Virus record (IMG/VR): IMGVR_UViG_3300046455_000317
Coordinates: 3,003 to 67,002 of that record
Reading direction: 5' to 3' (one strand)
Origin: a virus
DNA: 64,000 nucleotides
Positions 10,042-54,403 of this stretch are shown piece after piece (position 1 is the first letter of the stretch; every line of letters starts with the position of its first letter). The translations under genes and the position numbers were made by a program. The notes beneath the pieces were generated by a model. The model searched no databases, was not told the DNA's origin, and saw only the letters and a list, made by a program, of their open reading frames with translations.

Positions 10042-10898
10042 CCCATGTTCTCCCTGAGATGCTCTAGATTGTTGGTCCCCACGATGGGCGTTACATGGTT
10101 GTCCTTACACCATTGGAGGATCTGCCGCCGTTCCGCGATGTCCCGGCCTTGCCCCAACGGGCTATGGGCCATCACCGCAACGTTCATCGCGCGGAAGAAA
10201 GGGAGCACCCCAGCGAGCCCATCCAGACGGACCTGAATCGACGCCAATCGAGGGCAGGTGAGACGGGCGGTGTAGAATTGGTCCACGCTGAAGTTACACA
10301 CGCCCACGTAATCGGCCTTGTCTCCCAACAGGTCATTCAGCGCCGCCATTGTTCCCTCGATGGGGACATTGGCGTTGGGCCAGTGGATTTGGAACAGCCC
10401 CAAAGGTCCGCCCAGATTGTAAACGCTCCGAGACGCTGCCCGGAGGACATTCGTGTAGGTCATATGGTTCCGGCTGACCTTAGTGGCGATCCGGATCGGC
10501 GCGTTCTTCCCCAAGACCTCCCCAAGTTCCTTCTCCACGCGCCCATACCCATACGTCTCAGCGGTATCGATCAGCGTGACGCCCAAGCCCATAGCCTCTT
10601 GGGGTAGTCTGGGATCGTATTTCCACCCATAGCTTCCCCAACCGGGACGGGTGGAGAGCGTCAGTGGAACCGTGCATGGGACCGCCACTGTTTCTCTGGG
10701 GAGTTCCCTGAGACGGCGGATGGCGCGACTTCGCGCCTGCTCTTTCATCTGGGACGTGGCGGCGGTGAAGGCTTCGCGCCAGTGGGCTTCATAGAGCGAC
10801 CCATGGACGGCATTGCGGGCGAGGGCCAAGACTTCCTCTGGGACCTCCCCATCTTTGCCCTCCAGGTAGTCAGCGGCGGCACCGAACGGAATTATCAT
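10038..10898 (-). CDS. Aldo/keto reductase with N-terminal extension
   Basis: Tetrad motifs IDTAETYG, IATKV, FQIHWP; VGVCNF; AHSPLGQG. Confidence 0.88.
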   Translation of the reverse strand: MIIPFGAAADYLEGKDGEVPEEVLALARNAVHGSLYEAHWREAFTAATSQMKEQARSRAIRRLRELPRETVAVPCTVPLTLSTRPGWGSYGWKYDPRLPQEAMGLGVTLIDTAETYGYGRVEKELGEVLGKNAPIRIATKVSRNHMTYTNVLRAASRSVYNLGGPLGLFQIHWPNANVPIEGTMAALNDLLGDKADYVGVCNFSVDQFYTARLTCPRLASIQVRLDGLAGVLPFFRAMNVAVMAHSPLGQGRDIAERRQILQWCKDNHVTPIVGTNNLEHLRENMG

Positions 10899-36163: not shown

Positions 36164-36549
36164 GTCTCCTCGATGTCCTCCGCTCTGGGGTTGCCGTGGC
36201 GGACTCAATTCTGAAGCCACTTCAGGCTGACGTTTCAGTGGAGCGTTATCTGGGGACAGACGGCTATGGGACGGATCTATGGGCCCCAGCTGTGTTGATG
36301 AAGGCTCTGGTTGATTACACGACTCGTGCCCCAGACACGTATAGTGGCGACCCATTCGTGAAAGTTATTCTCACGTTCATCGACATCAACGAGATGGTCG
36401 CCAAGACGGATGGGAAGGGCATCAACGACCAAGACAAGATTACGCTCCCAGACGGAGTCACCGGGCCGATTCTCAACTTGGCGGGATTCATGGACGCCGG
36501 CACGGGCAGGCTCCTCGCCACTGAGGTCTTCTTGGGTGGGTCTGACTGA
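36160..36549 (+). CDS. Head-closure/neck protein
   Basis: Position; GTDGYG, DKITLPDG. Confidence 0.65.
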   Translation: MSLLDVLRSGVAVADSILKPLQADVSVERYLGTDGYGTDLWAPAVLMKALVDYTTRAPDTYSGDPFVKVILTFIDINEMVAKTDGKGINDQDKITLPDGVTGPILNLAGFMDAGTGRLLATEVFLGGSD

Positions 36550-37076
36550 TGGGGACAATCTCCGGCAGGTCGCCGCACCATAAGGTCTTGGGAGAGTTGG
36601 CGCGCGAAGCGGTTTCATATCTTGAAGTTGGCGTCCAAGATGGGGACTCGGTGGCGGCAGTCGTCAATCAAAATCCGAGGATTGCTCTCACGCTGTGCGA
36701 TACTTGGGGACCGCATCATGGGGGAACTGATCGAAAGTCGCATAGCCATGTTGAGGAACGGCTCGTTGGGATGGGCCACGAAGGGTCACGAGTCTACTTG
36801 GATGGATCGTCCCACGATCTCATCCCAAAGCTTCCCAAGGGCGGGTTTGACCTCGTCCACATCGATGCCGACCACTCCTTTGAGGGTTGCAAAGCGGACC
36901 TCAGGAACTGTTGGCCCTTGACCAACAAATTCTTAGTCGTCCACGACATCTTCTTTCGTGAAGTGCGAGACGCGGTGTTCCAGTTCCTCGAATGGAATAT
37001 GCCGGACATCGCCGCCATCGTGATGTCGGCCTACGACCATGGGACAATCGTCATCGAAAGGTTTGGGAGAGCCTGA
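36549..37076 (+). CDS. Class I SAM methyltransferase (Methyltransf_24-like)
   Basis: YLEVGVQDGDS, FDLVHIDADHS, LVVHD. Confidence 0.88.
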   Translation: MGTISGRSPHHKVLGELAREAVSYLEVGVQDGDSVAAVVNQNPRIALTLCDTWGPHHGGTDRKSHSHVEERLVGMGHEGSRVYLDGSSHDLIPKLPKGGFDLVHIDADHSFEGCKADLRNCWPLTNKFLVVHDIFFREVRDAVFQFLEWNMPDIAAIVMSAYDHGTIVIERFGRA

Positions 37077-38290
37077 TGCGGCGTTTGCTCTGGATTGGCG
37101 ATGCGGCGTGCCCTAGCGGTTTCGCCAAGGGCACCCACGGTGTGCTTGACTACCTCGATTATCGCGCCAATCCCGCGAACCCAAACCCATGGGATGTGAC
37201 GGTCTTGGGTATCAACTATCGGGGTGACCCCCATGAATACCCATACCCAATCTTTGCTGCTGGTGCTGGTGGGGACGGCTTTGGGATTGGTCGCACGGTT
37301 TGGATGTGCGATCACGTGCTTCCTACGGCGATTGCTATCCAACAGGACCCATGGAACTTCCCGGCGTATCTCAACCTTCTCCAGACGATCCCAGAGTACA
37401 AGGATGTTCCTGTCGTCGGTTTTGTGGCTGTCGATGGGCTCAACTGTCGCGGGATGGACCTCGAAGGGTTGAGATTGGCCGTCTTCTGGACCCAGTTTGG
37501 GAAGGAACAGGCTGTCCTTGGTGGGTATACAGGCCCATCCGCTGTGGTTCCGCTTGGGGTGGACCTGTCGGTTTACACCCCAGGAAACCAACAGGAAGCC
37601 CGGCGCGAGATGGGTTTCCCAGAGAAGATGGCGAATGCCTTTGTGGTTGGGAATGTGAATCGGAACCAGCCCAGGAAACGGCTGGACCTTACCATTCGGT
37701 ATTTCGCAGAGTTCTGGAAGTCGATGGACCGGCCGGCCAACGTGTTCCTGTACCTCCACGTGGCGCCGACTGGGGACAACGGCTACAACGTCAAGCAGCT
37801 GTGCCAATACTATGGGATACTCTCCCAACTGGTCCTCATGGAGCCGTCTGCGTGGTATGGGGAGTCTGAGGAGCGAATGGTTCAAACCTATCGCACCTTT
37901 GACCTCCAGGTAACCACGACCCAAGGCGAGGGTGATGGCCTGACGACCAAGGAGGGCATGGCCTGCGGAATCCCGCAGATTGTCCCAGAGTGGGCGGCAC
38001 TTGGGGAGTGGGCGAAAGGCTATGCCGTCACGGTCCCATGTACCTCGACAGCCGCGACGATTGGCCGCGCCAACGCGATTGGGGGCATTCCGGATGAAGC
38101 CATCTTCGTCCAGCGTCTCCGGAACCTGTATGGGAACCGGGCGATGCGGATCGCGGTGGCGGAGAAGTGTTTGGAGTGCGTCGCCCAACCTCAGTATCGT
38201 TGGGAAGCGGTTGGGCGTGGGTTTGCTGATGCCCTCGATGCGGAGCTTGTCCCCAGACAGATTTCTCTCCTCCAGGAGCAAGAGGCGTGA
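37076..38290 (+). CDS. Glycosyltransferase (GT-B, GT4-like)
   Basis: LLWIGD..SGF, VPLGVD, GNVNRNQPRKRLD, GEGDGL..KEGMACGIPQI. Confidence 0.9.
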   Translation: MRRLLWIGDAACPSGFAKGTHGVLDYLDYRANPANPNPWDVTVLGINYRGDPHEYPYPIFAAGAGGDGFGIGRTVWMCDHVLPTAIAIQQDPWNFPAYLNLLQTIPEYKDVPVVGFVAVDGLNCRGMDLEGLRLAVFWTQFGKEQAVLGGYTGPSAVVPLGVDLSVYTPGNQQEARREMGFPEKMANAFVVGNVNRNQPRKRLDLTIRYFAEFWKSMDRPANVFLYLHVAPTGDNGYNVKQLCQYYGILSQLVLMEPSAWYGESEERMVQTYRTFDLQVTTTQGEGDGLTTKEGMACGIPQIVPEWAALGEWAKGYAVTVPCTSTAATIGRANAIGGIPDEAIFVQRLRNLYGNRAMRIAVAEKCLECVAQPQYRWEAVGRGFADALDAELVPRQISLLQEQEA

Positions 38291-40438: not shown

Positions 40439-43400
40439 ATGGATATAGGAACACTCACCGGCTACATCATCCTCGAAGACAATCTGACGCCAGCGTTGGC
40501 GACAGCCCAGAAGAGTCTTGAGACGTTTGGGAGAGGCGCGAAGGATGCTGGTATTGCCCTTACAGCCGGTCTTTCAGTTCCCATCGCTGCGGTTGGGGGA
40601 TTCGCGATCAAAGCCGCCATAGACTTTGAGTCGTCTTTCGCCGGTGTTCGTAAGACAGTGGATGGCGCCGTCGATGACTTTGGGAATCTTACCAAAGTGG
40701 GCGCGGATTTACAGAATGCATTCCGAGGGTTAGCCAAGGAAATCCCGGTCAGCGTCAATGAGCTCAACGCCATCGCGGAAGCTGGCGGACAGTTAGGCGT
40801 CAAGAGCCAAGATCTGGTTTTGTTTACCCGCACCATGGCCGACATGGGCGTGGCTACCAACCTTTCCTCCGATCAAGCGGCGACCAGTCTCGCCCAGATC
40901 GCGAACATTATTAACAACGAAGCCGGTCCCCAGTATGATCGTTTGGGCGCCACCGTTGTTGACTTAGGTAACAAATCGGCCGCGACAGAATCTGATATCG
41001 TTGAATTTGGTCTCCGTCTGGCAGGCGCTGGTAAAGTCGCCGGCATGTCTGAGCCGGAAATCTTGGGGATTGGTTCTGCCCTCGCGTCCGTGGGTATCAA
41101 CGCTGAGGCCGGTGGCTCTGCCTTCTCCAAGGTAATGATCCAACTGGCGACGGCAGCCGACCAAGGTGGCGCCAAGCTTGAGAGCTTTGCGACAGTCGCT
41201 GGGGTCTCCGCCGATACGTTCAAGAAGAAGTTTGAGACCGATGCCGCTGGCGCTCTCACGATGTTCGTCCAGGGTCTGGGGAAGGTTGAGGCCCAAGGTG
41301 GGAGTCTCTTTGGGACCCTCGAACAGTTGGGGATCACCGAGCAGCGCATGCGAGATGCCCTCCTCCGGACGGCTGGGGCGGGTGACCTTCTCGCCCAGTC
41401 GATCAAGGATGGGCGAGCCGCTTGGGAGGCGAACACTGCACTAACCAAGGAAGCGGAACAACGCTACAAGACCACTGAGTCCCAACTCCAGTTACTTGGG
41501 AATAAACTGAACGATGTAGCCATCACCCTTGGGTCAGCGTTACTCCCCATCGTCATTGATCTCGTGAAAGCGTTGGAGCCGTTGATCGCGCATCTGGCGG
41601 ATGCAGCCAGGTGGTTCGCGGATTTACCTGCGCCTATCAAATACGTCACCATCGGCTTCCTCGCCATCGTGGCGGCGATTGGGCCCATGTTGATTGGCCT
41701 GGGGTTGATGGCGAGCGGTTGGGCGGCGATTATCCCACTCTTTGCCGCTGGGACGGTTGGGGGCACTGCCCTCGCTGGAACGATGACGTTCCTGAATTCC
41801 ACGCTCATCCCACTCGCTGTGACGTTGGCGCCGTTTGTCCTCGCCTTGGGCGCGCTCTACTACGCGGTCAACCAACTCATCCCAGCGTTCCATGGGCTCG
41901 CCACGGCTTGGGCGGAAGGAAAGACATGGGAGTTCCTGAGTGCGAGGGATGAAGACAACTTCGTCCGTCGTTGGTTGGGGATGTCTACCGGGGTGAAGAC
42001 GGCGAAGGATGGGATTCTCCCAGATATCAAAGCCATCAATGAGGCTGTTGCGGGATTGGCCGACCAACGGACCTCGGTCAACCCAGATCTTTCCAAACTG
42101 GAAAGTGCGCTCAAGAAGGCGGCTGACGAGGGTGAACTCACCGCGCCCATCATCGAGGATGTTGGGAATGCGATGAAGGCCGCTGGGCTTCACGCCAACA
42201 AGTCAACGCCCTATCTCTTGGCGGTTGCGGATCAATTGGCGGCTGTCGCGGCCGCAGGGAAACCAGCCGCGAAAGTGGTGGCGGAGACGGTAACTGAGGA
42301 ACAGAAAGCGGCCAAGGCAGCTGCTGATATGCAGCGCCAATTGGAGACACTCCGCAAAGAGGGACTGACTCCACTTACTGCCGCCCAGAAGACGTACATT
42401 ACTGAAGCCAAGAGGCTTGGGGATGAAGAATCCAACATCGCCAAGGTCACTGGCGTAAGTGAGCGTGCGATTCGTGCTTACTTGGACGCCAGTAAGGAAG
42501 CCGCCAAGAAGACTGAGGAGCACGCGAAGGCTGTCGCCAAGATGACGTCAGCCTATGAGGGGACCAACAAAGAACTCCATGAGTTGCCTAACTCCGTGCG
42601 TTGGGTGATTGAGGCCCAACTCAAAGCGGGCAAGAGTGTCGCGGATGTTGCCAAAGCCTACAACTTGACTGAGGAGACGGTCCAGGCTGTTGGCGATCAG
42701 ATGAAGATGCTGATTGACCTCCACGCGTTTGAGGCGTCGGCTTTGGGTATCACTGAGAGCACCCTTGGGAAAGTGAGTCGAGCAGAAGAGGAATACCTGA
42801 AGCTCTTGGGGCAGAACGTCACGCTGTATGCGACGTTGTCCCCAGCGCATCAGAAGGAAATTGATTTCTACCGGACCCAAACAAAAGCCACGGAAGCTCA
42901 GATCGCGGCGGCCATCGACCGGCTGCGCGTCTTGGAGTTGTTGGCGAGGGTGGAGAACGCGAGCAATGCTGGCTTACTGAGTGCGTTGACGTCCATAGGT
43001 GAGAAGGTCAACGTGATGGATACGTTGACCCTCGGCCAACAGGCTTACGTCCGAGAGGTTAAGAACACGACTGACGCCGTCGATGGGTGGGCGAGTGCGA
43101 TGTCTGCGGTTGGTGGAGCGTTCCCAGATACCTCGAAGTTTGGGAAAGCGATTGCGGGCATCGGCCAAGCGTTTACTGTCGCATCCGCGAGCCAGAAAGC
43201 GGCTGAGCGTGTCGCCAACAGATACAATGCGACTCGTGGGGTGAATCCTCCTGCGGGAGCCGATTGGGGTTATGGGAGCGTTGCGTTTGGCCCTGGTTCG
43301 ACACCTGGGGAGCGAGCCGGTGCTGTCGGACAGATCGCGTCGTCGTCTATCAGCGGTTATTACAACGCTCGTGGGGCACTCGACCAGGCGAGCCGCGTGG

Positions 43401-46264
43401 ATCGCACGCTTGGGATGGCTCAAACTGGCGCCCAAGTTGGTAGCGCCTTCGGTCCCCAAGGTGCCCTCATCGGGATGGGCGTTGGTGCGATTATTGGCGC
43501 GGTCTCTGAAGACCCAGGATGGGCGAAGGCCCAACACGCCGTTGCAGAAGCCTTTGGCGTTGAGATTTCAGAGGAATTAGGTCGCACGATTGCGGACAGT
43601 GCGGAGGAACTTGGAGGGAGGATCTACGGCATCTGGGATAACTTGGGAGCGATTATTTCAGAAGCTGGTGGGCTGGATGATGCGAATCTTGGTGACTATG
43701 AGGGCCATCTCATAGGGATGATGGAGGCTGTTAAGCAAGGAAACTTGGACGCGGCCATCGCCGTGGATACGCTGGATGAGACCTGGTCCCAGTTCGTGGA
43801 GGCTGGTACGTCTGACGTCGGTGTACTAAACCAGGCCTTGGTAAGTATCATCGACTACATGAATGAATTGGGCGTAGAAAGTCAAGCGGTCACTGCGTAT
43901 CTGGGAGCGCAGGGCCAAGCTGGTGCAAGTGCGTTTGGCGATGCGATGACCGTTGGGGGTGGCGCCATAACGGAACGGCTCCGACTGACGACCGAACTCC
44001 AAGTGGCGGAATCGGATCTCATGTTAGCGCGAGAGGATGGGAGCCAACGGTCCAAGGAGCAAGCGGAGGAGCTTGAAGCCAAGATTGAGGGTTTGAACGA
44101 GCAATTGGCCGTTCAAAACGGTATCATAGCAGCGACAGCCTTATCGTCCCAGGCAGCGGCGGATGCTATCGCGGCTGGAGTCGCGGCTGACTTCGACGCG
44201 ATGATAAACTCTGGGATGTCCTTCCATGACGCGGTGGAAGCGATTCAGCCAGCCATCGAGGGACTCCAACTTCAGATAACAGAGGCCGGTCTTACTGGGA
44301 GTGAGGTCTTTGATGTCCTCCAGGAGCAAGTGGCGCTCTACTCTGACGCTGTCGCTGGGCCCGCACTGACCGCCGTAGATGGTTTGTCTGCTGGGATGGT
44401 TAACCTCAGTAACATGGGGCAATTGAACCAAACGTCGTTTGCTGCACTGTCCGGGCAAATCGGATCCACGTTTGAATCGCTGGTTGCCCAAGGCAACGAT
44501 AGCGAAGTGGTAATGATTGGAATGAAGGATTCTATCCAACGGATGTGGGAGGAGCAACAGGAGTTTGGCTTCCATACGGACGAAGCGACCCAGGCGTTGA
44601 TCGACGAAGCTGTCGCCCAAGGGGTTGTGGGTGAGAAGCATAAGTCTATCTCAGACCAGATGTTGGACGCCACGAATCGTATCGCGGGTGCTATGGAAGG
44701 TCTTGCGAGAGCGATGGGCGTTGACATCCCAAATGCAGCGAACAATGCCGCGTATACGACGCGTGGCGCCGCTGACTCCATGGAGAGGGACTGGAACCGC
44801 GTCCATGATGCCGCGACTGGGGCCGCTGAAGGACACTCACCCTCTGGGATCAAGCAAGTCACCGTTCGCACTGCTGAAGCCCAACACGCGGTTGAAGTCG
44901 CGGCAGGCCAGATGATTGCGGCGTTCGGCCAGATCTTCCTCGTAGTGACTGGCTTGGGCGATGCGGTAATGGATACGTTTGAGAGCGTCCACCAACAGAT
45001 CGTGGATTACCAGAACGTCGATGCTGCGATTAGGTCATTGACCGTCGCCCAAAAGAACTTCATCGAGCTTGCTTTGGTATCTGGGGTATCAATTGCAGAT
45101 ATCGCTGCATTGCTTGGTACGAGCACTATTGCGATTCAGTCTTATGTGGACGCCAATAAGAAGGCAGCTGCTGCAGTGGCAGCGACAGCGGCAGCGACCG
45201 CTCAACACGCCCAGGTGATTGCAGATATCAACCAAGCCATAGCGGACCATGCGGATGCCGCAAATGCTATGGCAAGACTCACCGCCGGGCAGCGAAGTTT
45301 CATCGACAGTGCGATTGCCGCTGGCGTCTCAGTGAGTACGCTCGCTGGGGCATTAGGCACAACTGTTGAGGCCATTAGTCTCTATGTGGCCGCCCAGAAG
45401 GCAGCCGCTGACGCGGCTGATGCAACGGCTGCAGCGACCGCCAGGCACGTGGAGGTGGTCGAGGGCATTATCAAGGCCGTGGCAAACTACAAGGGCGCAG
45501 CCGATGAGATGGCGAAGCTCACCGCTGACCAACAGATTTTCATTACTGATGCCCTCCAGGCTGGGGTCTCGGTCAGTTCCCTCGCGGAAGCGTTGGGGAC
45601 AACGGTTGACGCTATCAACCTCTATGTGGCCGCCCAGAAAGCGGCAGCGGATGCCTCGAAAGCGACTGAGAAGGCGGCATTGGATGCAGCAGCTGCGGCT
45701 GCCAAGGAAGCCCAGAAGATTACGGACATTAACACCGCCATAGCGCAGAACAAAGGTGCTGCGGATGAGGCCGCGAAGTTCACGGAGGACCAGCGCACCT
45801 TCATCAAGGATGCCGTGGACGCGGGTGTCTCTGTAGCCGCTCTGGCTGACGTGATGGATACGACAACGTATGCGATCCAATACTTCATCGACTCCCAGAG
45901 GAAGATAACTGGCGCCCAGGAACCGACCATCGCACCGCCGCTGACTGGGTCCGAGGCATTTGAGCGTTGGCGAGAAGACTACAGCAGAAGTGTGGCGTCA
46001 CCCGTGGAATACTATGCGACTGGCGCGGATGTTATTCCATTCCCCAGCCGTGGGACGGATACCGTGCCCGCCATGTTGACCCCAGGCGAGGGTGTTCTCA
46101 CCGTCGAACAGAACAAAGAATACCACCAGACCATCGAGGGTCCGTCCAACCAGGAAGTCGTGGACGCCGTTAATGGGCTCCGCGTAGACATGACGACTAA
46201 GATGCCTCGCGCGTTGGCGCGCTCGCTCCATACCGGGCTTGTTGGGCTGAGGACGGCGTCATAG
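40439..46264 (+). CDS. Tape measure protein (1941 aa)
   Basis: TP901-type N-terminal domain (FESSFAGVRKT), Ala/Gly-rich, hydrophobic segments, C-terminal GTDTVPAMLTPGE. Confidence 0.93.
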   Translation: MDIGTLTGYIILEDNLTPALATAQKSLETFGRGAKDAGIALTAGLSVPIAAVGGFAIKAAIDFESSFAGVRKTVDGAVDDFGNLTKVGADLQNAFRGLAKEIPVSVNELNAIAEAGGQLGVKSQDLVLFTRTMADMGVATNLSSDQAATSLAQIANIINNEAGPQYDRLGATVVDLGNKSAATESDIVEFGLRLAGAGKVAGMSEPEILGIGSALASVGINAEAGGSAFSKVMIQLATAADQGGAKLESFATVAGVSADTFKKKFETDAAGALTMFVQGLGKVEAQGGSLFGTLEQLGITEQRMRDALLRTAGAGDLLAQSIKDGRAAWEANTALTKEAEQRYKTTESQLQLLGNKLNDVAITLGSALLPIVIDLVKALEPLIAHLADAARWFADLPAPIKYVTIGFLAIVAAIGPMLIGLGLMASGWAAIIPLFAAGTVGGTALAGTMTFLNSTLIPLAVTLAPFVLALGALYYAVNQLIPAFHGLATAWAEGKTWEFLSARDEDNFVRRWLGMSTGVKTAKDGILPDIKAINEAVAGLADQRTSVNPDLSKLESALKKAADEGELTAPIIEDVGNAMKAAGLHANKSTPYLLAVADQLAAVAAAGKPAAKVVAETVTEEQKAAKAAADMQRQLETLRKEGLTPLTAAQKTYITEAKRLGDEESNIAKVTGVSERAIRAYLDASKEAAKKTEEHAKAVAKMTSAYEGTNKELHELPNSVRWVIEAQLKAGKSVADVAKAYNLTEETVQAVGDQMKMLIDLHAFEASALGITESTLGKVSRAEEEYLKLLGQNVTLYATLSPAHQKEIDFYRTQTKATEAQIAAAIDRLRVLELLARVENASNAGLLSALTSIGEKVNVMDTLTLGQQAYVREVKNTTDAVDGWASAMSAVGGAFPDTSKFGKAIAGIGQAFTVASASQKAAERVANRYNATRGVNPPAGADWGYGSVAFGPGSTPGERAGAVGQIASSSISGYYNARGALDQASRVDRTLGMAQTGAQVGSAFGPQGALIGMGVGAIIGAVSEDPGWAKAQHAVAEAFGVEISEELGRTIADSAEELGGRIYGIWDNLGAIISEAGGLDDANLGDYEGHLIGMMEAVKQGNLDAAIAVDTLDETWSQFVEAGTSDVGVLNQALVSIIDYMNELGVESQAVTAYLGAQGQAGASAFGDAMTVGGGAITERLRLTTELQVAESDLMLAREDGSQRSKEQAEELEAKIEGLNEQLAVQNGIIAATALSSQAAADAIAAGVAADFDAMINSGMSFHDAVEAIQPAIEGLQLQITEAGLTGSEVFDVLQEQVALYSDAVAGPALTAVDGLSAGMVNLSNMGQLNQTSFAALSGQIGSTFESLVAQGNDSEVVMIGMKDSIQRMWEEQQEFGFHTDEATQALIDEAVAQGVVGEKHKSISDQMLDATNRIAGAMEGLARAMGVDIPNAANNAAYTTRGAADSMERDWNRVHDAATGAAEGHSPSGIKQVTVRTAEAQHAVEVAAGQMIAAFGQIFLVVTGLGDAVMDTFESVHQQIVDYQNVDAAIRSLTVAQKNFIELALVSGVSIADIAALLGTSTIAIQSYVDANKKAAAAVAATAAATAQHAQVIADINQAIADHADAANAMARLTAGQRSFIDSAIAAGVSVSTLAGALGTTVEAISLYVAAQKAAADAADATAAATARHVEVVEGIIKAVANYKGAADEMAKLTADQQIFITDALQAGVSVSSLAEALGTTVDAINLYVAAQKAAADASKATEKAALDAAAAAAKEAQKITDINTAIAQNKGAADEAAKFTEDQRTFIKDAVDAGVSVAALADVMDTTTYAIQYFIDSQRKITGAQEPTIAPPLTGSEAFERWREDYSRSVASPVEYYATGADVIPFPSRGTDTVPAMLTPGEGVLTVEQNKEYHQTIEGPSNQEVVDAVNGLRVDMTTKMPRALARSLHTGLVGLRTAS

Positions 46265-49200
46265 TGGCTGTTATCCTGAATGTTATTGAAACGACATCGG
46301 TCAATACCTCTGGGGTATTTGGTGCGTGGCTTACAGCGGTTGTATCTGGTGGCCCAGGTCACCCTGGGGACAGACTCATCCTCTATAACACTGATAACAC
46401 CATCCTCGATTGGTTCTTCCTGAATGGGACAAAAGCTCCACCGGCTGCTGGTCTCACCTCGGGCCAGTGTACTTTTGGAAGACCAAGCGCCGCTGGGAAA
46501 TACAAGGTTCAGTTCGTCCACTTCTATCAACCCAGGGCAAACTACCAAGATACGGTTCTTGCGGATGGGGTCACCTATTACTGGCAGATGGACGAAACCT
46601 CTGGGGTCACTGCCGTTGATATGAAGGCCGGTTTGAATGGGACGATTTCCGGTGGCGTCACGCTCGGCACGCCCCATATCTTCCCAGGCACGCACGATAC
46701 CCCAGTGATGACGTTCAATGGGGTGGACGGGCAAATCGTGACTTCCGCTCCCATAACACTACCCTCTGGGGCGGTCACTTTTGAGGCATGGATTCGACAG
46801 ACGAAGACAATTCCCACGCCAACAGTTCGCTATCATTGTATATGGACGAATCGTCGGAGCCCAGGCTTATCAACTACCACTGATGTGTTCTTTGTTGGGA
46901 CCGTGGAATCCAATGGTGTCCTCCACGCCATTCTCGCCTATGGGCCTAACCAATACCAAGGCGTCACCGACATTGGCGACGGTCAGTGGCACCATATCGT
47001 AGTGGCGGTTGCTGCCCCCCAGATGGTGATTTTTGTTGATGGGAAGATCGATGCGAGCCTTGGTACCCTCGCGCGATTGCCGGCAGACCCAGGTGGCCCA
47101 CCGGCGATTGGACGCGATCTCACAAACGCCACGGTTACTCAGTTCAATGGGGCGTTGGGGAAGGTTGCGGTTTACTACTCCAATCTCTCCCACCAGAAAA
47201 TCACCGAGCACGCGGCGTATGGGTTCCAAACGACGGTTCTGGCGGTAGAGACTGTAACCGTCCATCTGAGTGAACCCCAAGTCTGCTTGGAGATGGAGTT
47301 CCTGGGGAAGAACCAGGGCTGGACGATTGTCCGTGATTGGTATGTGAATCCCGGCTTGGTATGGCACCGAGGTCTACCTGGGATTGGGATTCTGGATCTG
47401 ATTGCGGACATTGGAACGCTCCACTTCACCCTCGACAATAGTGAGAAGAACAGCGTTGGGAAAGTCGGGTATTACAGCCCAGACCACGCCAACAAACGGT
47501 ATGGGTTCTACCTGAATATTGGCGTCCGTGTTCGTATCGGGCAGTCCAAACGGTTCACCGGCGTCATCTCCTCGATTGACCCCGTCCCAGGGAAGTTTGG
47601 GACGCGCACCGTCCAAGTTGAGTGTACGGATTGGATGGGTATCGCAGACCGGACACGCATCGAGAATCTCCCAGTTCTGGTAAACAAGCGCGGTGATGAG
47701 GTCTTCCGGACACTTCTCGATTCGCTCCCAGGGTCAGCCCACCCAGATGGAGTTCAAGCCGATTCCAGCCCAGACATTTACCCATACACGTTGGACCGGA
47801 CACGTGACGAACAAACGGTCCTCCGCGATGAGTTGTACCGGCTCTGTACGAGTGGGATGGCCCGCATCTATGTTCTGGGCGATGGGACGCTGGTCTATGA
47901 GAATCGGGGCAGACGCGCCGCCATAACATCGAGCGTTGATACGTTCACTGACTCCCATGGCTTCACCTCTTCCCATGGGCGCGAAGCCATTGTGAACCGG
48001 GCCCAGGCGACCATCCACCCTCGGCTCCCATCAGCGACCGATGTTGTGTTGTACTCGATGCCGCAGCCCATGGAACTCGTGGCGGGAACTCCGCTGACGA
48101 TTATGGGCCCATGGTCTGACCCGGCCAACCCCAATACGCGTGTGGGAGCGGTCAGTCTAGTGTCCCCACTAGTCCGTGGGACCGACTATGTCGCCAACTC
48201 ACTCGCCAATGGGACAGGGACGGATCTTACAGCGTCAGTAGTGATTCTCGCTGGGCTCTCTGGGAACGCGACATCCTTCACGGTCTCACTTCCCCAGGGT
48301 GGGTTTCTCATAAAGCTCCAACAACGTGGGAAGCCGTTGTATGACTACGGCCAAGCGGTTCTCACTTGGGAGGACACAACATCTATCGCCCAGTTCGGAG
48401 TTGCCTCGACCCAGATTGATATGCCCTATACGGCCGACCCAAATCTGGCCTTGGAGGTCGCCCAGTTTACGGTTTACAATGGGGCGTTCCCACTGACGAA
48501 TGTTGCTGGATTCAGTCGTATCGTAGACCTGAAGAATCCCACGGAACTCCAACGGAGTATTGGGCGTCTCATCAGCGACCGGATTAGCATCATTGACCCG
48601 GTGACTGGATTGTCGAAGCCATTCTTCATCAACGCAGTTGATGAGACTATCTCCGAGAATCGAGTCACGACACAGTGGATGTTGACCCCAGGCGATGCGA
48701 CGGGCTATTGGCTCTTGGAAGTCGATGGGTTCACCGAGCTTGATATTACGACGCGTCTGGGATTCGGGCAGATTCTCGGCCATGTGGATATCGTTCACCA
48801 AGATATCCATGGAGACCAAATCCATTACGATTCGATCCACATTGATACCCACTCGGACAACGTCCACGTTGATTTGACGCACGTCGATTTTGTTACCCAT
48901 ACGGACGTTACCGATCACCACGACCAGAGCACCCATGTGGATGATCCCGGGCACTCAGATTCGGTCGCCCATACGGACTACTCCGACCATGTGGATGTGA
49001 CGACCCATGATGACGTAACACACCAAGACGTTCCCCATACGGATGGCGCCCATACCGATATCGCGCAGGTGTATTGGCACACGGACATCCCCCATACGGA
49101 CATCGCCCATTACGATGTCTACTATGATTCGCCGCACCAAGACATCGCTCACCAGGATAGCCACGATGACTGGCGAGATAATGTCCCTGGGATCAATTTC

Positions 49201-49803
49201 CTCGACCATATCGACTGCAATCCGCAATACAATGGAACTGGTAAGTGGCATCTGGATTGTAACTCGAAACCCTATGGGCCGCCCTACGGTGACCCAAATC
49301 CCAACGGGTCATTCCATAACGACCAGAACCATGTGGACGGGCATTACGACCAGAGTGGTCTCCACTACGACCAGAACGATCACGTAGACTACGCGCACCA
49401 AGACGCCCATGGGGACTCCCATGCGGACTACCACGCGGACCAACGCCACGTGGATGAGGGCTATTTCGATCCGCACCAGGACGTGCCTTACCAAGCTGCC
49501 CATGGGGATACACCGCACTATGATGTGCCCCATTACGATACCGCGCAGGTCTATGTGCCCCATACGGATGTGTATCCACATTCCGATAGTGGCGCCCATC
49601 ACGACCAAAACATCCATACGGACACGTCGAACCACTCCGATGCGATCCTCCACGACGATGTAACGTCCCACGCAGACAATAACGTCCACTCGGACACTCC
49701 CCATACCGACATTACCCATGGGGATACGCCGCACCAAGACATAGCCCACTCGGATGTCCCACACCAAGATACGCACCAAGACTTCCATGGAGACTCGAAT
49801 TGA
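46264..49803 (+). CDS. Large tail protein: LamG/ConA-like domain, baseplate/hub-like middle, C-terminal His-x-Asp repeat domain
   Basis: YYWQMDE..TFEAW..DGQWHHIV..FVDG (LamG); LDNS..YSP, GRLISDRISI (tail hub-like); about 55 HxD. Confidence 0.8.
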   Translation: MAVILNVIETTSVNTSGVFGAWLTAVVSGGPGHPGDRLILYNTDNTILDWFFLNGTKAPPAAGLTSGQCTFGRPSAAGKYKVQFVHFYQPRANYQDTVLADGVTYYWQMDETSGVTAVDMKAGLNGTISGGVTLGTPHIFPGTHDTPVMTFNGVDGQIVTSAPITLPSGAVTFEAWIRQTKTIPTPTVRYHCIWTNRRSPGLSTTTDVFFVGTVESNGVLHAILAYGPNQYQGVTDIGDGQWHHIVVAVAAPQMVIFVDGKIDASLGTLARLPADPGGPPAIGRDLTNATVTQFNGALGKVAVYYSNLSHQKITEHAAYGFQTTVLAVETVTVHLSEPQVCLEMEFLGKNQGWTIVRDWYVNPGLVWHRGLPGIGILDLIADIGTLHFTLDNSEKNSVGKVGYYSPDHANKRYGFYLNIGVRVRIGQSKRFTGVISSIDPVPGKFGTRTVQVECTDWMGIADRTRIENLPVLVNKRGDEVFRTLLDSLPGSAHPDGVQADSSPDIYPYTLDRTRDEQTVLRDELYRLCTSGMARIYVLGDGTLVYENRGRRAAITSSVDTFTDSHGFTSSHGREAIVNRAQATIHPRLPSATDVVLYSMPQPMELVAGTPLTIMGPWSDPANPNTRVGAVSLVSPLVRGTDYVANSLANGTGTDLTASVVILAGLSGNATSFTVSLPQGGFLIKLQQRGKPLYDYGQAVLTWEDTTSIAQFGVASTQIDMPYTADPNLALEVAQFTVYNGAFPLTNVAGFSRIVDLKNPTELQRSIGRLISDRISIIDPVTGLSKPFFINAVDETISENRVTTQWMLTPGDATGYWLLEVDGFTELDITTRLGFGQILGHVDIVHQDIHGDQIHYDSIHIDTHSDNVHVDLTHVDFVTHTDVTDHHDQSTHVDDPGHSDSVAHTDYSDHVDVTTHDDVTHQDVPHTDGAHTDIAQVYWHTDIPHTDIAHYDVYYDSPHQDIAHQDSHDDWRDNVPGINFLDHIDCNPQYNGTGKWHLDCNSKPYGPPYGDPNPNGSFHNDQNHVDGHYDQSGLHYDQNDHVDYAHQDAHGDSHADYHADQRHVDEGYFDPHQDVPYQAAHGDTPHYDVPHYDTAQVYVPHTDVYPHSDSGAHHDQNIHTDTSNHSDAILHDDVTSHADNNVHSDTPHTDITHGDTPHQDIAHSDVPHQDTHQDFHGDSN
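48781..49800 (+). repeat. About 55 His-x-Asp tripeptide repeats (mostly 4-6 residue period)
   Basis: Counted by hand from the translation; extra YxD, WxD and FxD variants. Confidence 0.95.
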
Positions 49804-51107
49804 CGATTGAGCTGACTCCCAACGGCGTGGCCTGCAATTTGGACTGTCCCTATTGCTACCAGAAGCCCATGAGAGACGCCGGAAACATCTCCCAAGGTTA
49901 CGACATGGAGAAGATGATCGCCGGGCTCAAACGCGAGGGTGGGCCATTCGCGGTCTTCGGTGGGGAAGCCTTGACGATGCCGCTCGATGATTTGGTCCAA
50001 ATCTTTGAGTTCGGGTATAAGACCTATGGGTCCAACGGCGTCCAGACGAATGGGACGCTGATTACTGAGGAACACTTGGACGTGTTCCAGAAATACAAAG
50101 TCCACGTGGGACTCTCCATCGATGGCCCAGACGAATTGAACGACAGCCGATGGGTCAAAGACCTTCCCACGACGCGAGAAGCCACGGCCAAGAGCCATGC
50201 GGCGCTCCAAGCTCTCGTGAAGCGGAAGCAATCTCCAAGTATTATCGTCACCCTCTACCGTGGGAATGCCGTGGGGCAGCGCTTGGACCGGCTCATTACC
50301 TGGTTCAAGGAGCTTGACCGTATGGGCGTGCGAAACGTCCGTCTCCATCTCCTCGAAGTGGAGAACCGCGAAGTGGCGGAGACGATGGCGATGACGACAG
50401 AGGAGAATATCACGGCGCTGATGCGCCTCTATGAGTTCCAGAGGAAGACCAAGATCAACTTTGACCTCTTTGGGGAGATTGCCCGGCTCCTCCAAGCCAA
50501 CGATGACGCGGTAACGTGTACGTGGAACGCGTGCGACCCATACACGACATCCGCCGTCCGTGGGGTCAGCGGGCAAGGTGAGTCGTCCAACTGTGGGCGA
50601 ACCAACAAAGAAGGAATCAATTGGCAGAAAGCCAACACGCCTGGGTTTGAGCGGCAGGTCGCGCTTTACAACACGCCCCAGGAAGATCTGGGGTGCAAAG
50701 GGTGCCGGTTCTTCTTCGCCTGTAAGGGCCAATGCCCTGGGACGGCGGAGGGTGGTGACTGGCGGAACCGAAGCGAGCACTGCGGCATCTGGATGGCGTT
50801 GTTCGAGCGCATCGAGGGAGATATGATTGGGCTTGGCCAACAGCCTGTCTCCCGCGCGGAGTGGCTTCCCAAGCTCGAACGGATTATGGTTGATACCTGG
50901 GACAGCGGCCGGAACATAACCATCAGGGAAGCGATGCATCGTCTCAACGGCTCCCCATGCGCTGAGACCGGCGATGGGGGCAACCGGCCCCATGGCGACC
51001 ATTGGGATGCTCCGGAAGGCGCGTCCCACTCTGATGGGATATGGGATGTCCATGGGGACAAAGGCACCACAGTCCACGGCGACTCTGGGAGAGAAGACAA
51101 TGCGTGA
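49800..51107 (+). CDS. Radical SAM/SPASM maturase with C-terminal HxD tail
   Basis: CNLDCPYC, FGGEAL, QTNGTL, SIDGP; SPASM Cys: CTWNAC..NC..CKGCRFFFACKGQC..HC; ends with HGD, HWD, HSD, HGD, HGD. Confidence 0.92.
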   Translation: MTIELTPNGVACNLDCPYCYQKPMRDAGNISQGYDMEKMIAGLKREGGPFAVFGGEALTMPLDDLVQIFEFGYKTYGSNGVQTNGTLITEEHLDVFQKYKVHVGLSIDGPDELNDSRWVKDLPTTREATAKSHAALQALVKRKQSPSIIVTLYRGNAVGQRLDRLITWFKELDRMGVRNVRLHLLEVENREVAETMAMTTEENITALMRLYEFQRKTKINFDLFGEIARLLQANDDAVTCTWNACDPYTTSAVRGVSGQGESSNCGRTNKEGINWQKANTPGFERQVALYNTPQEDLGCKGCRFFFACKGQCPGTAEGGDWRNRSEHCGIWMALFERIEGDMIGLGQQPVSRAEWLPKLERIMVDTWDSGRNITIREAMHRLNGSPCAETGDGGNRPHGDHWDAPEGASHSDGIWDVHGDKGTTVHGDSGREDNA

Positions 51108-52218
51108 TTGGACGCGGATTATCTGGGTGAGCGCCAGAGCACGCGCTGTCTGGGAACCCAGGCTCACCCTCATCCAGAAGGCGTGGCTCCAAGTCGAGGT
51201 GGATAGTGTCCTCCTTGGGCTGCGCCCAGCGGGTCTTGTCTTCGGCCAACCCACGGTTGCGGGTCTTCCCATAACGCCAGTGGCTCCGAATCGCTATGCG
51301 ATTGGCCCAGCGGCAGCGGATCTCGTCATGGCGTTCCGCCAGAGTAACAATCAACTCATTGGAGAACTCCTTGGGTATCCTCCATGCTGCCGCGACTTCT
51401 TTGACCGCACCTGGGGCCTGGGACTCCTTGATACTACGGCGCAGATGGAAGGAGATGGGAATGGACCGCTGGACTGCAATATTCTTGGTCGGTGGTTGGG
51501 TGTGCGCTTCATTATGCATCTACCATGCAGTTGGACGTGCGAGCATACCATCGTCTGTGCCGAGCGTTGGAAGCCCTTGTGGCCCAGAGAGGCTCTCCAA
51601 TGGGCCACTGAGATACTCTCTTGGCCCGCTCAATGGTCCGCTCGAAATGGAATCGCTGAGATCACCTTCCCAGTCTGTAAGATGTCTACCCGGACAACGC
51701 CTGGTGAGACGGCGATTATTCGACGACATGGGATATCCCCAGAGGAAGCCGCGACGGGCGTTCAGTTCCCATTCAATGAGCCACGCCGACGATCCCAAGT
51801 CGAGCCATTGATCCAACTCACTGACCCCGCCAAGGCCAATGGGTTCTCCTCCCTCGAAGCAATGACTGCCGCCCATGCAATGGTCCTCGAAGAATTGGAG
51901 ATGTCGCCGCCCCAAGGGTTGACGGTAGACCTTGGGTGTGGGAACGGTCGGTTAATGCGACAGATTGGGAAGAAATTCACGGTCCCAGTTCTGGGCGTTG
52001 AGGTGGACCCAAGCCGCGCCCAAGGCGCTGCCGATATCCGTTTGACGAACCTGGAAGCCTTGGATACACTTCCCCACGATGCCGACACCCTCGTGGTCTC
52101 CATGCGGCGGTTCGAGGAGATTCCAGAACTGGAACGTTGGGCGGCTTCCCATGCCCGGCAAGTGTTGGTCTACAGTTACGATCCACCGATGTTTGCTGAG
52201 ATGAAGCGAGGACAGTAA
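51100..52218 (+). CDS. Cys-rich (DUF483-like) domain fused to class I methyltransferase
   Basis: GELLGYPPCC..FF, HLPCSWTC; C-terminal VDLGCGNG, VLGVEVD; start at MRDWTR. Confidence 0.7.
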   Translation: MRDWTRIIWVSARARAVWEPRLTLIQKAWLQVEVDSVLLGLRPAGLVFGQPTVAGLPITPVAPNRYAIGPAAADLVMAFRQSNNQLIGELLGYPPCCRDFFDRTWGLGLLDTTAQMEGDGNGPLDCNILGRWLGVRFIMHLPCSWTCEHTIVCAERWKPLWPREALQWATEILSWPAQWSARNGIAEITFPVCKMSTRTTPGETAIIRRHGISPEEAATGVQFPFNEPRRRSQVEPLIQLTDPAKANGFSSLEAMTAAHAMVLEELEMSPPQGLTVDLGCGNGRLMRQIGKKFTVPVLGVEVDPSRAQGAADIRLTNLEALDTLPHDADTLVVSMRRFEEIPELERWAASHARQVLVYSYDPPMFAEMKRGQ

Positions 52219-52700
52219 TGGCGAGTTGGCCTGCACGAACGTGGGTTCCAGCGGAACGTGTGACAGCGGGCATGATGAATGGGGTGCGAGACCAACTCAA
52301 TGAACTCCATTCATTCGGTCAGTGGCTCGACCAACCGTTCAATGCGGCCGATTATGGGGCGAGTGCTGGCGCGACATGGACTCTAGGTCTGGCAGCGATT
52401 CTCAGAAATCGCTATACCATTATCCAGAAAACGTTGATTTGGAACTTCTACGTTTCGTGGTTTTCCGGGTCCAATAATCTCATCGGTGCTCCCAGTACGC
52501 TCACGATCAAACTCCCTGGGAACTGTACCTGCCCTGGGAATATCATTATGCCTACGGCCTACAACATCGATGGCGGAGCACGAGTTGATGTTGACGCGAG
52601 TCCCAACGGGGCCACCTGTTCGTTCACGAAAAGAAATGGGAGCAACTTCACGGCCGGTTCTCCTGGGATAATTGGGACATTGACTTTTGAGATTCTCTAA
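52218..52700 (+). CDS. Short tail fibre / receptor-binding-like protein
   Basis: N-terminal WPARTW..ERVT.GMMNGVRDQLNELH anchor shared with the next gene; beta-rich C-terminus. Confidence 0.7.
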   Translation: MASWPARTWVPAERVTAGMMNGVRDQLNELHSFGQWLDQPFNAADYGASAGATWTLGLAAILRNRYTIIQKTLIWNFYVSWFSGSNNLIGAPSTLTIKLPGNCTCPGNIIMPTAYNIDGGARVDVDASPNGATCSFTKRNGSNFTAGSPGIIGTLTFEIL

Positions 52701-54403
52701 TGGCTGACGAACCACGCAAGAGTCTCTTTGAGACCCAGCGGGATTTTGTTCGCCAACAGGCGGAGGTTTCACCCTTCGCGGCGAACTGGCCTGCGCGGAC
52801 CTGGATGCCTGGGGAGCGTGTTACCTCTGGGATGATGAATGGCGTCCGAGACCAGCTCAACGAACTCCATAACACGGTTGGTGGACTCGATGCAACCAAC
52901 GTCGCCTATAAGAACCAGGCGAACGTTTTCACAGTGAACCAGGTCCTCAACAATGCTGCACTTTTCATCCAGGGTAGTAATCCCAGTCTCTACCTGTATG
53001 ATCCTACCCAGCCAGTAAACCTTCGTAACTTCCGCCTCATGAACCAAACCCAGTTGCTCCGGATCTACGCCCAGGATGATGGGGAGAGTGGGTTTGTAAA
53101 CGCGATGTCGCTGTCTCGCTCAGGACAGTTAATGGTGCGAGGAACGATTCAGATTGGTAAAGCGGACATTATCAGTCCAACCGTCCCAGGTCTTCGGAAC
53201 ACCGACAACCGATTGGATATTGTGCTTGGGGACCAAACCAACTGGGCGCCAGTGCAAGCGCTGAGTTACTATGCCGTGGGTGTCGGAAACAGCTTTGCAG
53301 ATCTGACTGTCCGTGGGGCGACGAACTTCCAGAGTAACATCTCTGTCTCCAATGGCGCGGTGATCTCCCAGGGCCCAGTGTATCCTGGCTTTGTTGATAC
53401 TGGTGCGGCGCAGGTATCGTACTACATTGGCGCCCATACCGGCTATGCTGGCCTCTATACCAATGCGAGTTTGACCGCCCAAGGTGAACTGTACGCAATT
53501 GGAAACATTTTCAGTAACAGCCCGGTCTACCCTGGCCGCATTGATACGGGATGGACCAAGCAAACGAGTCTGTATCTTGGGTCCCATGGGAGCTATGGGC
53601 TCTACTCTAACACGGGCCTCTATCTGGAAGGCCCAGTGTGGATGTCTTCCTTCGCGTCTCGTGGCCCTGGGACCATCGCTGGGAATCTAACAATTACAAC
53701 GGGCGGCGCAAGTATCACCGGCACCCTCGTGGTAAATACTGTCGTGGTTAATGTGGGTCCACTGACCGTGGCGACTGGTGGGGCAGACATTACGGGTTAC
53801 TCATACGTCCGGACACCCGGTGGCGCTGGTGATGCTTCGTTGTTCCTCATGAATCCCGCCGCTGGTGGCGCAACCCAAAACTTCCGACTTATGAGCTATG
53901 GGGGTTACTTCCGCGTATGGAATGCGGATAATGGCGCGGAATTACTTCTAGTCCATGGCTCTGGCTCTGTCACTCTCCCTGGTGGTGGTGGGGTGATGAG
54001 CGCCCAAGTGTACTACGAGCGTGGCCGCACTGTCCCCATGGGAGGGCTCACAGCCGTCGATCCAGCTGTCTATATGCACGGCCAAGTGGTTGGTGTAAGT
54101 GGAACGATGATGTATGCCCTCGTGGGCCGCATGATGCACCTGACGTTCAATATCGCAGCCACTTGCGTGACTGGCGGCGGTAACCAGATCAATATGACTA
54201 TTCCATTCCCAGCTGGGCAACTCCCAGCGATTACGTGTCACGTGGGAATCTGGACGGCGCACGCCCAACGTTATTGGCACTCTTCATTCGCGGCTTATGC
54301 AGCCAATCAATATTTCTTGACCTTCTACGATGAGGGTCTGGCTGGATGGCCAGACGGTGCAATCTATCTCTATGGGTCCATCGACATTCCGTTCAGTCCG
54401 TAA
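52700..54403 (+). CDS. Tail fibre protein
   Basis: Same anchor motif; NVFTVNQ; internal repeat PVYPG..DTG..Q.S.Y.G.H..Y.GLY; Gly/Thr-rich beta segments. Confidence 0.8.
   Translation: MADEPRKSLFETQRDFVRQQAEVSPFAANWPARTWMPGERVTSGMMNGVRDQLNELHNTVGGLDATNVAYKNQANVFTVNQVLNNAALFIQGSNPSLYLYDPTQPVNLRNFRLMNQTQLLRIYAQDDGESGFVNAMSLSRSGQLMVRGTIQIGKADIISPTVPGLRNTDNRLDIVLGDQTNWAPVQALSYYAVGVGNSFADLTVRGATNFQSNISVSNGAVISQGPVYPGFVDTGAAQVSYYIGAHTGYAGLYTNASLTAQGELYAIGNIFSNSPVYPGRIDTGWTKQTSLYLGSHGSYGLYSNTGLYLEGPVWMSSFASRGPGTIAGNLTITTGGASITGTLVVNTVVVNVGPLTVATGGADITGYSYVRTPGGAGDASLFLMNPAAGGATQNFRLMSYGGYFRVWNADNGAELLLVHGSGSVTLPGGGGVMSAQVYYERGRTVPMGGLTAVDPAVYMHGQVVGVSGTMMYALVGRMMHLTFNIAATCVTGGGNQINMTIPFPAGQLPAITCHVGIWTAHAQRYWHSSFAAYAANQYFLTFYDEGLAGWPDGAIYLYGSIDIPFSP

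Follow-up and report, generated by a model that had tools for sequence, protein, structure and literature searches.

A mirror-spaced His-x-Asp domain at a phage tail tip, encoded beside a radical SAM/SPASM enzyme, as a candidate for a modified fold-back needle

The DNA analyzed here (the window; 64,000 nucleotides, positions 3,003 to 67,002 of the IMG/VR virus record IMGVR_UViG_3300046455_000317) is a phage genome, encoding a DNA polymerase, a primase-helicase, a large terminase, a portal, a head maturation protease and a capsid protein, as well as a head-tail adaptor, a major tail protein and a tape measure protein of 1941 amino acids (aa). This work concerns the C-terminal domain of a 1179-aa protein encoded at 46264-49803 on the plus strand, which is dense in His-x-Asp (HxD) motifs (nucleotides 48781-49800, in frame; residues 840-1179, 340 aa), and the two genes that follow. 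The latter encode a radical S-adenosylmethionine (rSAM)/SPASM enzyme and a DUF483-methyltransferase protein, neither of which had been remarked in the original prediction for this DNA, which was made from the sequence and addressed the HxD domain. The features on which the argument rests are:

46264..49803, plus strand: tail-tip protein, 1179 aa, with an N-terminal decoration, a hub (Tal-like) core and the C-terminal HxD domain (AlphaFold2, Foldseek, Pfam)
48781..49257, plus strand: HxD N-arm, residues 840-998, 26 HxD motifs; begins directly after a conserved TRLGFGxxxG motif
49258..49314, plus strand: putative turn/tip loop, residues 999-1017, CNSKPYGPPYGDPNPNGSF; largest motif-free gap (22), at the midpoint between the arms
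49315..49800, plus strand: HxD C-arm, residues 1018-1179, 29 HxD motifs; the chain stops 2 residues past the last HxD
49800..51107, plus strand: rSAM/SPASM enzyme, 435 aa; begins at a TTG overlapping the HxD stop codon; Pfam Radical_SAM PF04055, 50.9 bits (cutoff 29.5)
50973..51104, plus strand: C-terminal tail of this enzyme, with HxD motifs of its own (HGDHW..., HSD, HGD, HGD), from an alignment of homologues
51100..52218, plus strand: DUF483 plus class I methyltransferase protein, 372 aa from the ATG at 51100 (longest open reading frame (ORF) from 50974); Pfam, and AlphaFold2 with a mean predicted local distance difference test (pLDDT) of 90.5

The HxD domain contains 57 His, 67 Asp and 55 HxD motifs (36% His plus Asp), but no HxH motif. 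Its HxD density (55 in 340 aa, 0.16 per residue) compares with 7 in 6144 aa (0.0011) for nine other virion-gene stretches of the window. Expressed as His-to-His intervals, the N-arm starts with 5,4,5,5,4,5,5 (sum 33), continues with seven intervals of 6 and then with 5,5,5,9,5,5,9,5,4; the centre reads 15,14,22; and thereafter follow 5,4,7,6,5,4,4,4,5,9,9,5,5,10, again seven intervals of 6, and finally 5,5,5,5,5,4,4. Counted backwards from the C-terminal end, the first seven intervals (4,4,5,5,5,5,5) likewise give 33, and the seven 6s come next; the intervals given in the original prediction were thus reproduced exactly from the translated ORF. With the 22-residue gap taken as the turn, the arms comprise 159 and 160 residues. 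The non-repetitive centre that had been described was present as well, with a two-Cys segment (CNPQYNGTGKWHLDC) and a Pro/Gly/Asn-rich stretch; the irregular zone around the turn, rich in aromatic residues, Gly, Pro and Asn, extends roughly from residue 967 to 1040. The motif AQVY does occur once per half, as stated there, but the two copies are ∼15 residues off the mirror register and consequently do not face each other.

Aligned to its own reverse, the interval list scored 21 compared with a shuffle mean of −0.5, and 0 of 300 shuffles reached this score; these shuffles preserve interval composition only, and the big central gaps supply part of the mirror signal. The z score was about 4 (3.9-4.3) in mirror order and 2.0 in direct order. 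In a gapless antiparallel register with the first His facing the last Asp, 15 of maximally 27 rungs were exact His-opposite-Asp pairs, which was matched by 1 of 500 shuffles. Thus, the mirror spacing of the HxD motifs is not a product of chance. A palindrome in the DNA was rejected as its source, as no inverted repeat was found in the HxD region; because of this, and because reverse-complemented His and Asp codons would not give HxD, the symmetry must be maintained at the protein level. Direct DNA repeats in the region are diverged (60-85%). A direct duplication of the two halves was likewise rejected for the window protein, since the order of the blocks is reversed and the direct z score is below that of the mirror order.

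Homologues of the domain (56 proteins, found by a word-indexed search) have the repeat consensus V-A-H-x-D, a 5-residue unit. The family is rare, as a full scan of 1.84 billion cluster representatives yielded only 64 matches at E ≤ 0.001. In 50 of the 56 proteins, the chain ends at most 3 aa past the last HxD. Mirror statistics were calculated for the 51 proteins with a C-terminal domain, 28 of which open with the intervals 5,4,5,5,4. For 21 of the 51, none of 300 shuffles reached the observed score, and the median z over all 51 was 2.5 in mirror order versus 0.6 in direct order, so that the symmetry proposed for the window protein recurs in its relatives. The single-register test was applied to nine proteins, the window protein included. 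It resulted in 24 of 24 rungs for P0022, 20 of 21 for P0027 and 21 of 26 for P0041 with the first His facing the last Asp (0 of 500 shuffles each), and in 14 of 26 for P0002 (1 of 500). The signal was weaker in P0003, P0010, P0011 and P0026 (18 to 341 of 500 shuffles) and not significant for P0003 (341 of 500) and P0011 (141 of 500), in which shifts by one residue disrupt a register without gaps.

Paired insertions and deletions had been put forward as a check on the symmetry. Relative to the window protein, 12 residues are missing from each arm of P0002; in P0003 the counts are 26 (N-arm) and 24 (C-arm), and in P0004 they are 35 and 34; homologous indels are therefore paired between the halves. 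The number of 6-residue intervals also co-varies between the arms (7/7, 5/5, 2/2, 1/1). The domain ranges from 145 to 353 aa in length, and of the 31 proteins having a gap of at least 11, 24 have their motif-free centre at 0.45-0.55 of this length (the 20 proteins with smaller gaps were left out of this test), while the centre itself differs in length and sequence between homologues. A rule equating the largest gap with the turn failed where a degenerate motif leaves a gap of 9-10 (naive arm-length correlation, −0.47) and was replaced by the shuffle, centre-of-gap and register tests.

The HxD proteins of two Thermus phages, phiMa_29 and phiLo_137, were mirrored, too (z 4.6 and 4.4, 0 of 300 shuffles each), with N-terminal parts unlike the Tal family of the window. 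In contrast, seven bacterial HxD proteins encoded beside the same enzyme family were tested and found not to be mirrored (z −4.1 to 0.9), which is why mirror spacing is regarded as a trait of the phage fibre domains and not as a requirement of the enzyme. One of the seven (L033, 2626-4275; 550 aa, 50 HxD motifs) has intervals that correspond to a direct duplication (direct z 3.6, mirror z −1.5).

The remainder of the tail-tip protein and its gene neighbourhood bear on where the domain is located in the virion:

40439..46264, plus strand: tape measure protein, 1941 aa; matches tape-measure families of PHROG, the best being phrog_13339 (E 6e-111); ends at the start of the HxD protein
46723..47202, plus strand: LamG/concanavalin-like lectin domain, residues 154-313; Pfam PF13385, E 9.9e-15, 55.4 bits (cutoff 27.6)
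47281..48708, plus strand: baseplate-hub/Tal core, residues ∼340-815; pLDDT ∼90, Foldseek; conserved from residue 345 onwards

The hub core is the part common to homologues of 650-870 aa. Foldseek matched it to the Milano baseplate (8fqc, E 2.6e-11), MuSo2 (3cdd), Mu gp44 (1wru) and the 80alpha baseplate model (6v8i), and further to Listeria gp18 (3gs9) and VgrG (4mtk), with E values from 2.6e-11 to 3e-07 and template modelling scores on the target of up to 0.69. In the same ORF (window 46264-47280), the hub is preceded by ∼340 residues, a β-sandwich plus the LamG domain, which most homologues do not have. The HxD gene starts where the tape measure gene ends (46264), with no separate Dit gene in between, and the order is the same in L003-L007; the gene for phiMa_29 comes after those of the baseplate wedge, at the tail-fibre position. 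Because it is attached to a Tal-like hub fold directly after the tape measure gene, the HxD domain is considered a needle or fibre at the tail tip. Tals of solved structure form trimers, and their diverse C-terminal extensions make up the central fibre, as outlined in the accessible text of PMC7291167, and by analogy with this fold we infer that the HxD domain is homotrimeric. The siphophage Tals lambda gpJ, SPP1 gp21 and T5 pb3 resemble the window protein in having a gp27/gp44-like trimeric hub within the tape-measure module and, as the central fibre, a long extension at the C-terminus (PMC7291167, accessible text); the known extensions are, however, fibronectin-like, lysins or carbohydrate-binding, none being an HxD repeat or paired with a maturase.

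The equal arms, paired indels and common register, all read from sequences, argue that the two arms very probably pair in antiparallel fashion, folding back on each other. The chain would then run out for ∼160 residues, turn at the irregular tip rich in aromatic residues, Gly and Pro, and return for ∼160 residues; as judged from the comparison of homologues, the first His would face the last Asp, and triads from opposite arms would make His-opposite-Asp rungs. The central loop may, as originally predicted, be a receptor-binding or piercing tip. A phage fibre tip whose chain runs out, turns and comes back has precedents in the Bas63 fibres and in the long-tail-fibre tip of T4, gp37 (PDB 2XGF), with which the original prediction had compared the domain. 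In gp37, the chain doubles back to form a six-stranded needle, in which core-facing HxH motifs on both arms hold Fe (PMC12609058, accessible part). The comparison is fair as an analogy, but does not extend to the sequence: a PDB sequence search with the HxD domain gave no similarity to gp37 (only two chance-level matches to chitosanases, E 0.76), and the window domain has 55 HxD and no HxH motifs where gp37 has seven HxH. The window domain, moreover, is fused to a hub protein on the tail axis and co-encoded with a maturase. In 2-oxoglutarate dioxygenases, His-x-Asp makes up the metal-binding portion of the 2-His-1-carboxylate triad. Given this, and the Fe held by HxH in gp37, metal binding by the remaining N and O donors of the HxD triads is plausible.

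Whether the downstream enzyme genes belong to the HxD domain was addressed from both sides. Alignment of HxD proteins yielded 13 IMG/VR loci, nine of which cover the complete gene and DNA downstream of it (L003 breaks off within the gene, and L014 and L015 are partial). The order HxD gene, rSAM gene, DUF483 gene, directly adjoining, was found in all nine; as L006 and L007 look like one phage, these represent eight independent loci. L013 is a natural negative control (n = 1), since its hub homologue (7989-10250, matching residues 339-805) has a LamG-type C-terminus, no HxD motifs and no rSAM gene. A search of viral contigs with a single rSAM sequence found no loci, whereas the alignment-based searches did. 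Among GenBank phages, the enzyme was present only in the Thermus phages phiMa, Cumys and phiLo (47-49% identity). phiMa has the same gene order, and phiMa_29, encoded directly upstream of the rSAM gene, contains 53 HxD motifs; in phiLo, the rSAM gene adjoins the methyltransferase gene, and ∼4.5 kb downstream the opposite strand has two HxD-rich ORFs, with 72 and at least 51 motifs. In the reverse survey, pattern matching in 185,579 species genomes gave 184 matches, of which 180 encoded relatives of the enzyme, and the best 80 loci were taken. An ORF with at least 10 HxD motifs was present within 8 kb in 54 of these and one with 8-9 motifs in six more (60 of 80), and DUF483 adjoined the rSAM gene in 72 of 80.

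The HxD carriers in the enzyme-side loci, which cover many phyla, are large proteins, peptides of 80-96 aa, or proteins with signals resembling those of the twin-arginine translocation (Tat) pathway. HxD-rich bacterial proteins with Tat-like signals (e.g., RRALLRAG...) are encoded in L018, L019, L038, L039, L055 and L062; such signals suggest export after maturation in the cytoplasm. The 80-96-aa ORFs lie directly upstream of the rSAM gene (L069, 7686-7949; L079, 3288-3575; L090, 7664-7948; L093, 7710-7949), have nine HxD motifs at intervals of 6-7, and look like classical precursors of peptides that are made by ribosomes and modified after translation (RiPPs). Also upstream of an rSAM gene, L036 (7385-7912) encodes a proline-rich variant consisting of twelve PPHSDQPP units with an exact 12-residue period.

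The rSAM enzyme contains the Cx3Cx2C motif at C12, C16 and C19 and a SPASM motif, Cx2Cx5Cx3C, at C299, C302, C308 and C312, cysteines that are invariant in an alignment of homologues; the SPASM motif is present in 120 of 120 homologues. It matches phrog_1802, and 2762 proteins from many phyla match it at E ≤ 0.001. Its TTG start at 49800 is backed by homologues sharing the N-terminus; the database gene call for this enzyme (P0057, 412 aa) starts ∼23 residues downstream, which would drop C12, C16 and C19. The top NCBIfam families (bits versus cutoff: AmcB, 67.9 versus 425; GrrM/OscB, 59.3 versus 310; YhhB, 56.6 versus 445; XyeB, 40.1 versus 450; DynA was also among the best matches) are cyclophane-forming peptide maturases, which connect an aromatic residue with the one at +2; Hxs models were not among the 25 best of the 44 NCBIfam matches. 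The closest solved sequences are the anaerobic sulfatase maturase (anSME) 4k36 (E 8e-11) and the triceptide synthase ChlB (9gm3). The enzyme itself ends in a conserved tail with HxD motifs; 92 of the 120 homologues have at least two of them in a tail of ∼56 aa, the median for the catalytic core being 0. Its pattern is HGDHWDAPDG...HxD...HGD...HGD, and the rSAM ORF of L084 (621 aa) has as many as 31 HxD motifs. The tail might serve for docking, act as a pseudo-substrate or undergo self-modification.

In the third protein, DUF483 and Methyltransf_25 are weak; they were found in 27 and 35, respectively, of 46 aligned homologues. Residues 238-372 of the window protein match methyltransferases with Z up to 11.6, and C96, C97, H140, C143 and C147 are invariant. 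Fold searches with the whole protein matched the methyltransferase half only, and the Atlas gave DUF483 clusters only. Many DUF483 partners do not have the methyltransferase part, the matches ending near residue 270. In L022, L023, L074 and L082, rSAM and DUF483 are fused in one frame (ORFs of 678-704 aa), and P0129 (706 aa) also aligns as rSAM plus DUF483.

The original prediction had left the role of the motifs at metal binding or crosslinking. With the rSAM gene overlapping the stop codon of the HxD gene and DUF483 next in line, the balance shifts toward enzymatic modification of the triads. From the gene linkage it is likely that the rSAM/SPASM enzyme has the HxD triads as its substrate, which would also be that of its DUF483-methyltransferase partner. 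Triceptide RiPPs (HtkB, HaaB, YhhB, XyeB, OscB/GrrM) offer an analogy, as a repeated aromatic-x-residue motif, His-first motifs included, is encoded beside an rSAM/SPASM gene. The synthases link His-C2 to C-β of residue 3 in HTK, HAA and HNR motifs (PMC11499958, accessible text). They differ from the window system in that its enzyme scores below the family cutoffs, the partner is DUF483, the third position is Asp, and the substrate would be an 1179-aa virion protein with 55 sites instead of a short leader-core peptide. By this analogy, the likeliest chemistry would be a side-chain link within each triad that connects the His ring to C-β of Asp, as in three-residue cyclophanes; such a link would tie side chains on one face of the strand and lock its geometry, conceivably giving a stiff, heat- and protease-resistant needle, and imidazole nitrogens and carboxylates could be left free to hold metal ions. 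This specific crosslink chemistry is put forward tentatively and with some doubt. For the combined proposal, a fold-back tail needle whose HxD triads are maturase substrates, possibly bearing three-residue His-to-Asp crosslinks and perhaps binding metal as well, the balance of the evidence is modestly favorable. More generally, an uncharacterized rSAM/SPASM plus DUF483 system of phages and many bacteria might install dozens of covalent modifications on HxD repeat proteins, here up to 55 side-chain crosslinks per chain, a suggestion for which our confidence is rather low. The product would then be a protein-sized, RiPP-like tail tip with either i-to-i+2 staples or a cross-strand His-Asp ladder zipping the hairpin, and the conserved HxD tail of the enzyme would dock it onto the growing repeat array.

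Several observations weigh against this combined proposal, and the first of them concern the fold. With a 39-row alignment, the AlphaFold2 monomer placed the HxD domain (840-1179) at pLDDT ∼30 without secondary structure, so that the out-and-back hairpin of the original prediction is upheld by the sequence evidence (equal arms, paired indels, register) but not by the model, which gave no fold. A pLDDT of ∼30 fits disorder as well as it fits a fold that needs trimerization, metal or modification. A predicted complex of three copies of residues 845-1174 plus four Fe, run without controls, had a score of 0.00 in both runs and a partner pLDDT <50, which speaks neither for nor against the needle. 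In a flat strand with a 5-residue period, furthermore, triads would alternate between the two faces, and the geometry is not obvious. Precedent for reading a fold-back from motif spacing is also weak because the spacing in gp37 (L096; HxH at 883, 915, 929 and at 966, 980, 989, 998) is only locally mirrored, with just the two head-flanking intervals being equal (14/14); as a positive control for the spacing method, gp37 was rejected for having too few motifs. The domain might then have no defined fold, being a disordered, charged His/Asp-rich tail (a metal sponge, pH sensor or spacer), or it might form a parallel pentapeptide-type solenoid. The low pLDDT, the 36% content of His plus Asp and the 5-residue V-A-H-x-D repeat speak for this reading. 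Neither version of it, however, would lead one to expect arms of equal length, paired indels or a register of first His and last Asp conserved across three lineages, and the pentapeptide family gave no Pfam match at E ≤ 0.01, Laminin_G_3 being the sole match. We regard this explanation as very improbable.

The second group of objections concerns the partnership with the enzyme. In 20 of the 80 enzyme-side loci, at least three of which are short, no HxD-rich ORF was present within 8 kb. Kolesnik et al. (2024) proposed DNA modification for the corresponding module of Thermus phages (PMC11437467, accessible text). The HxD triads could be a matter of metal only: those of a trimeric fold-back needle would bind Fe or another divalent metal on the axis, while the rSAM and DUF483 proteins act elsewhere, for example, on DNA. 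The mirror register is present in either case, His-x-Asp does belong to the 2-His-1-carboxylate metal triad, and the doubled-back chain of the gp37 needle has HxH-Fe sites (PMC12609058, accessible part). Yet, the window motif is not HxH and bears no similarity to gp37, and the linkage would be left unexplained, that is, the nine of nine viral loci, the 60 of 80 genome loci, the start/stop overlap and the placement within the tail module. Tat-like signals on bacterial HxD proteins beside the same enzyme do not suit the partner of a DNA-modifying enzyme, either, and SPASM enzymes mostly act on peptides or proteins. A needle relying on metal alone is thus considered unlikely.

The third group concerns the chemistry. 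The cyclophane-synthase models reached 60-68 bits versus cutoffs of 310-450, and the anSME model, at 58.9 bits also far below its cutoff, scored about equal to them, which makes the chemistry of the rSAM enzyme unreadable from its sequence. To our knowledge, no cyclophane with Asp at position 3 has been characterized. The same architecture and the same enzyme-substrate pair might, therefore, come with another chemistry, be it epimerization at C-α, C- or N-methylation, or nested His-Asp links between the strands. That the enzyme cannot be assigned to a family, with all NCBIfam matches far below cutoff and anSME as good as the cyclophane synthases, speaks for such alternatives in general. Methylation is in keeping with the DUF483-methyltransferase fusion seen in 35 of 46 aligned homologues, but is at odds with the many DUF483 partners that do without it. 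Cross-strand links are geometrically possible, as every His has an Asp of the opposite arm across from it in the proposed register, and nested thioether bridges are known from the hairpins of sactipeptides; the seven bacterial HxD partners without mirror spacing indicate, on the other hand, that the enzyme needs no mirrored arm, which favors a reaction within the triad. Taken together, a different chemistry on the same substrate appears rather unlikely, although less remote than a metal-only needle.

No paper on HxD repeat fibres or the HxD domain was found in a literature search that extended neither to subscription journals nor to figures and supplements. The nearest studied His-x-small-residue repeat protein matured by rSAM enzymes is that of the HXS antiphage system, which shares with the window system such a repeat protein (HxsA), rSAM enzymes and a phage-host setting. 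HXS is a bacterial defence system with a periplasmic effector, which has five HxS repeats, the rSAM enzymes HxsB and HxsC plus HxsD, and a change of +8 Da at one SHRSS site (PMC13128918, accessible text). The window differs in its motif, HxD, and in having one rSAM enzyme together with a DUF483-methyltransferase. The "rSAM module" of the Thermus phages Cumys and phiMa is, by contrast, the same three-gene module, its rSAM enzyme being 47-49% identical and the DUF483 protein following the rSAM. When describing it, Kolesnik et al. (2024) noted rSAM-DUF483 fusions, designated the third protein as "unknown" and guessed at DNA modification; the main text, as accessible, does not mention His/Asp repeats, the word "histidine" occurring 0 times (PMC11437467).

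If the combined proposal holds, radical chemistry acts at dozens of sites to mature a structural protein of a phage. A tail fibre that is stiff and heat-stable would then be made by a new route; the carriers in culture are Thermus phages. It would also provide a function for a widespread module whose role is unknown, including DUF483, which has no known function, and carry three-residue crosslink chemistry beyond short peptides, to entire proteins and to a His motif that contains Asp. The proposal is directly testable, as phiMa and Cumys carry the module and grow on Thermus thermophilus HB8. Beyond the present case, the analysis of mirror spacing and paired indels is a cheap, sequence-only way of detecting fold-back fibres where structure predictors fail.

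Downstream of the DUF483 gene, the window contains one more pair of related genes:

52218-52700 and 52700-54403, plus strand: two genes (ORFs) for proteins of 160 aa and 567 aa with a common N-terminal motif of ∼30 aa

Neither has a PHROG or NCBIfam match. They probably encode side fibres or receptor-binding proteins, perhaps alternative or paired fibre proteins. Because these fibre-like genes come after them, the enzyme genes lie inside the tail module, and all genes from 46264 to 54403 overlap or abut, like one operon. Between the head-tail adaptor and the tail genes (window 36549-38290), a methyltransferase-like ORF with weak PHROG matches and a glycosyltransferase-like ORF (phrog_2170, E 1.4e-20) were found, which may be further virion-modifying enzymes.

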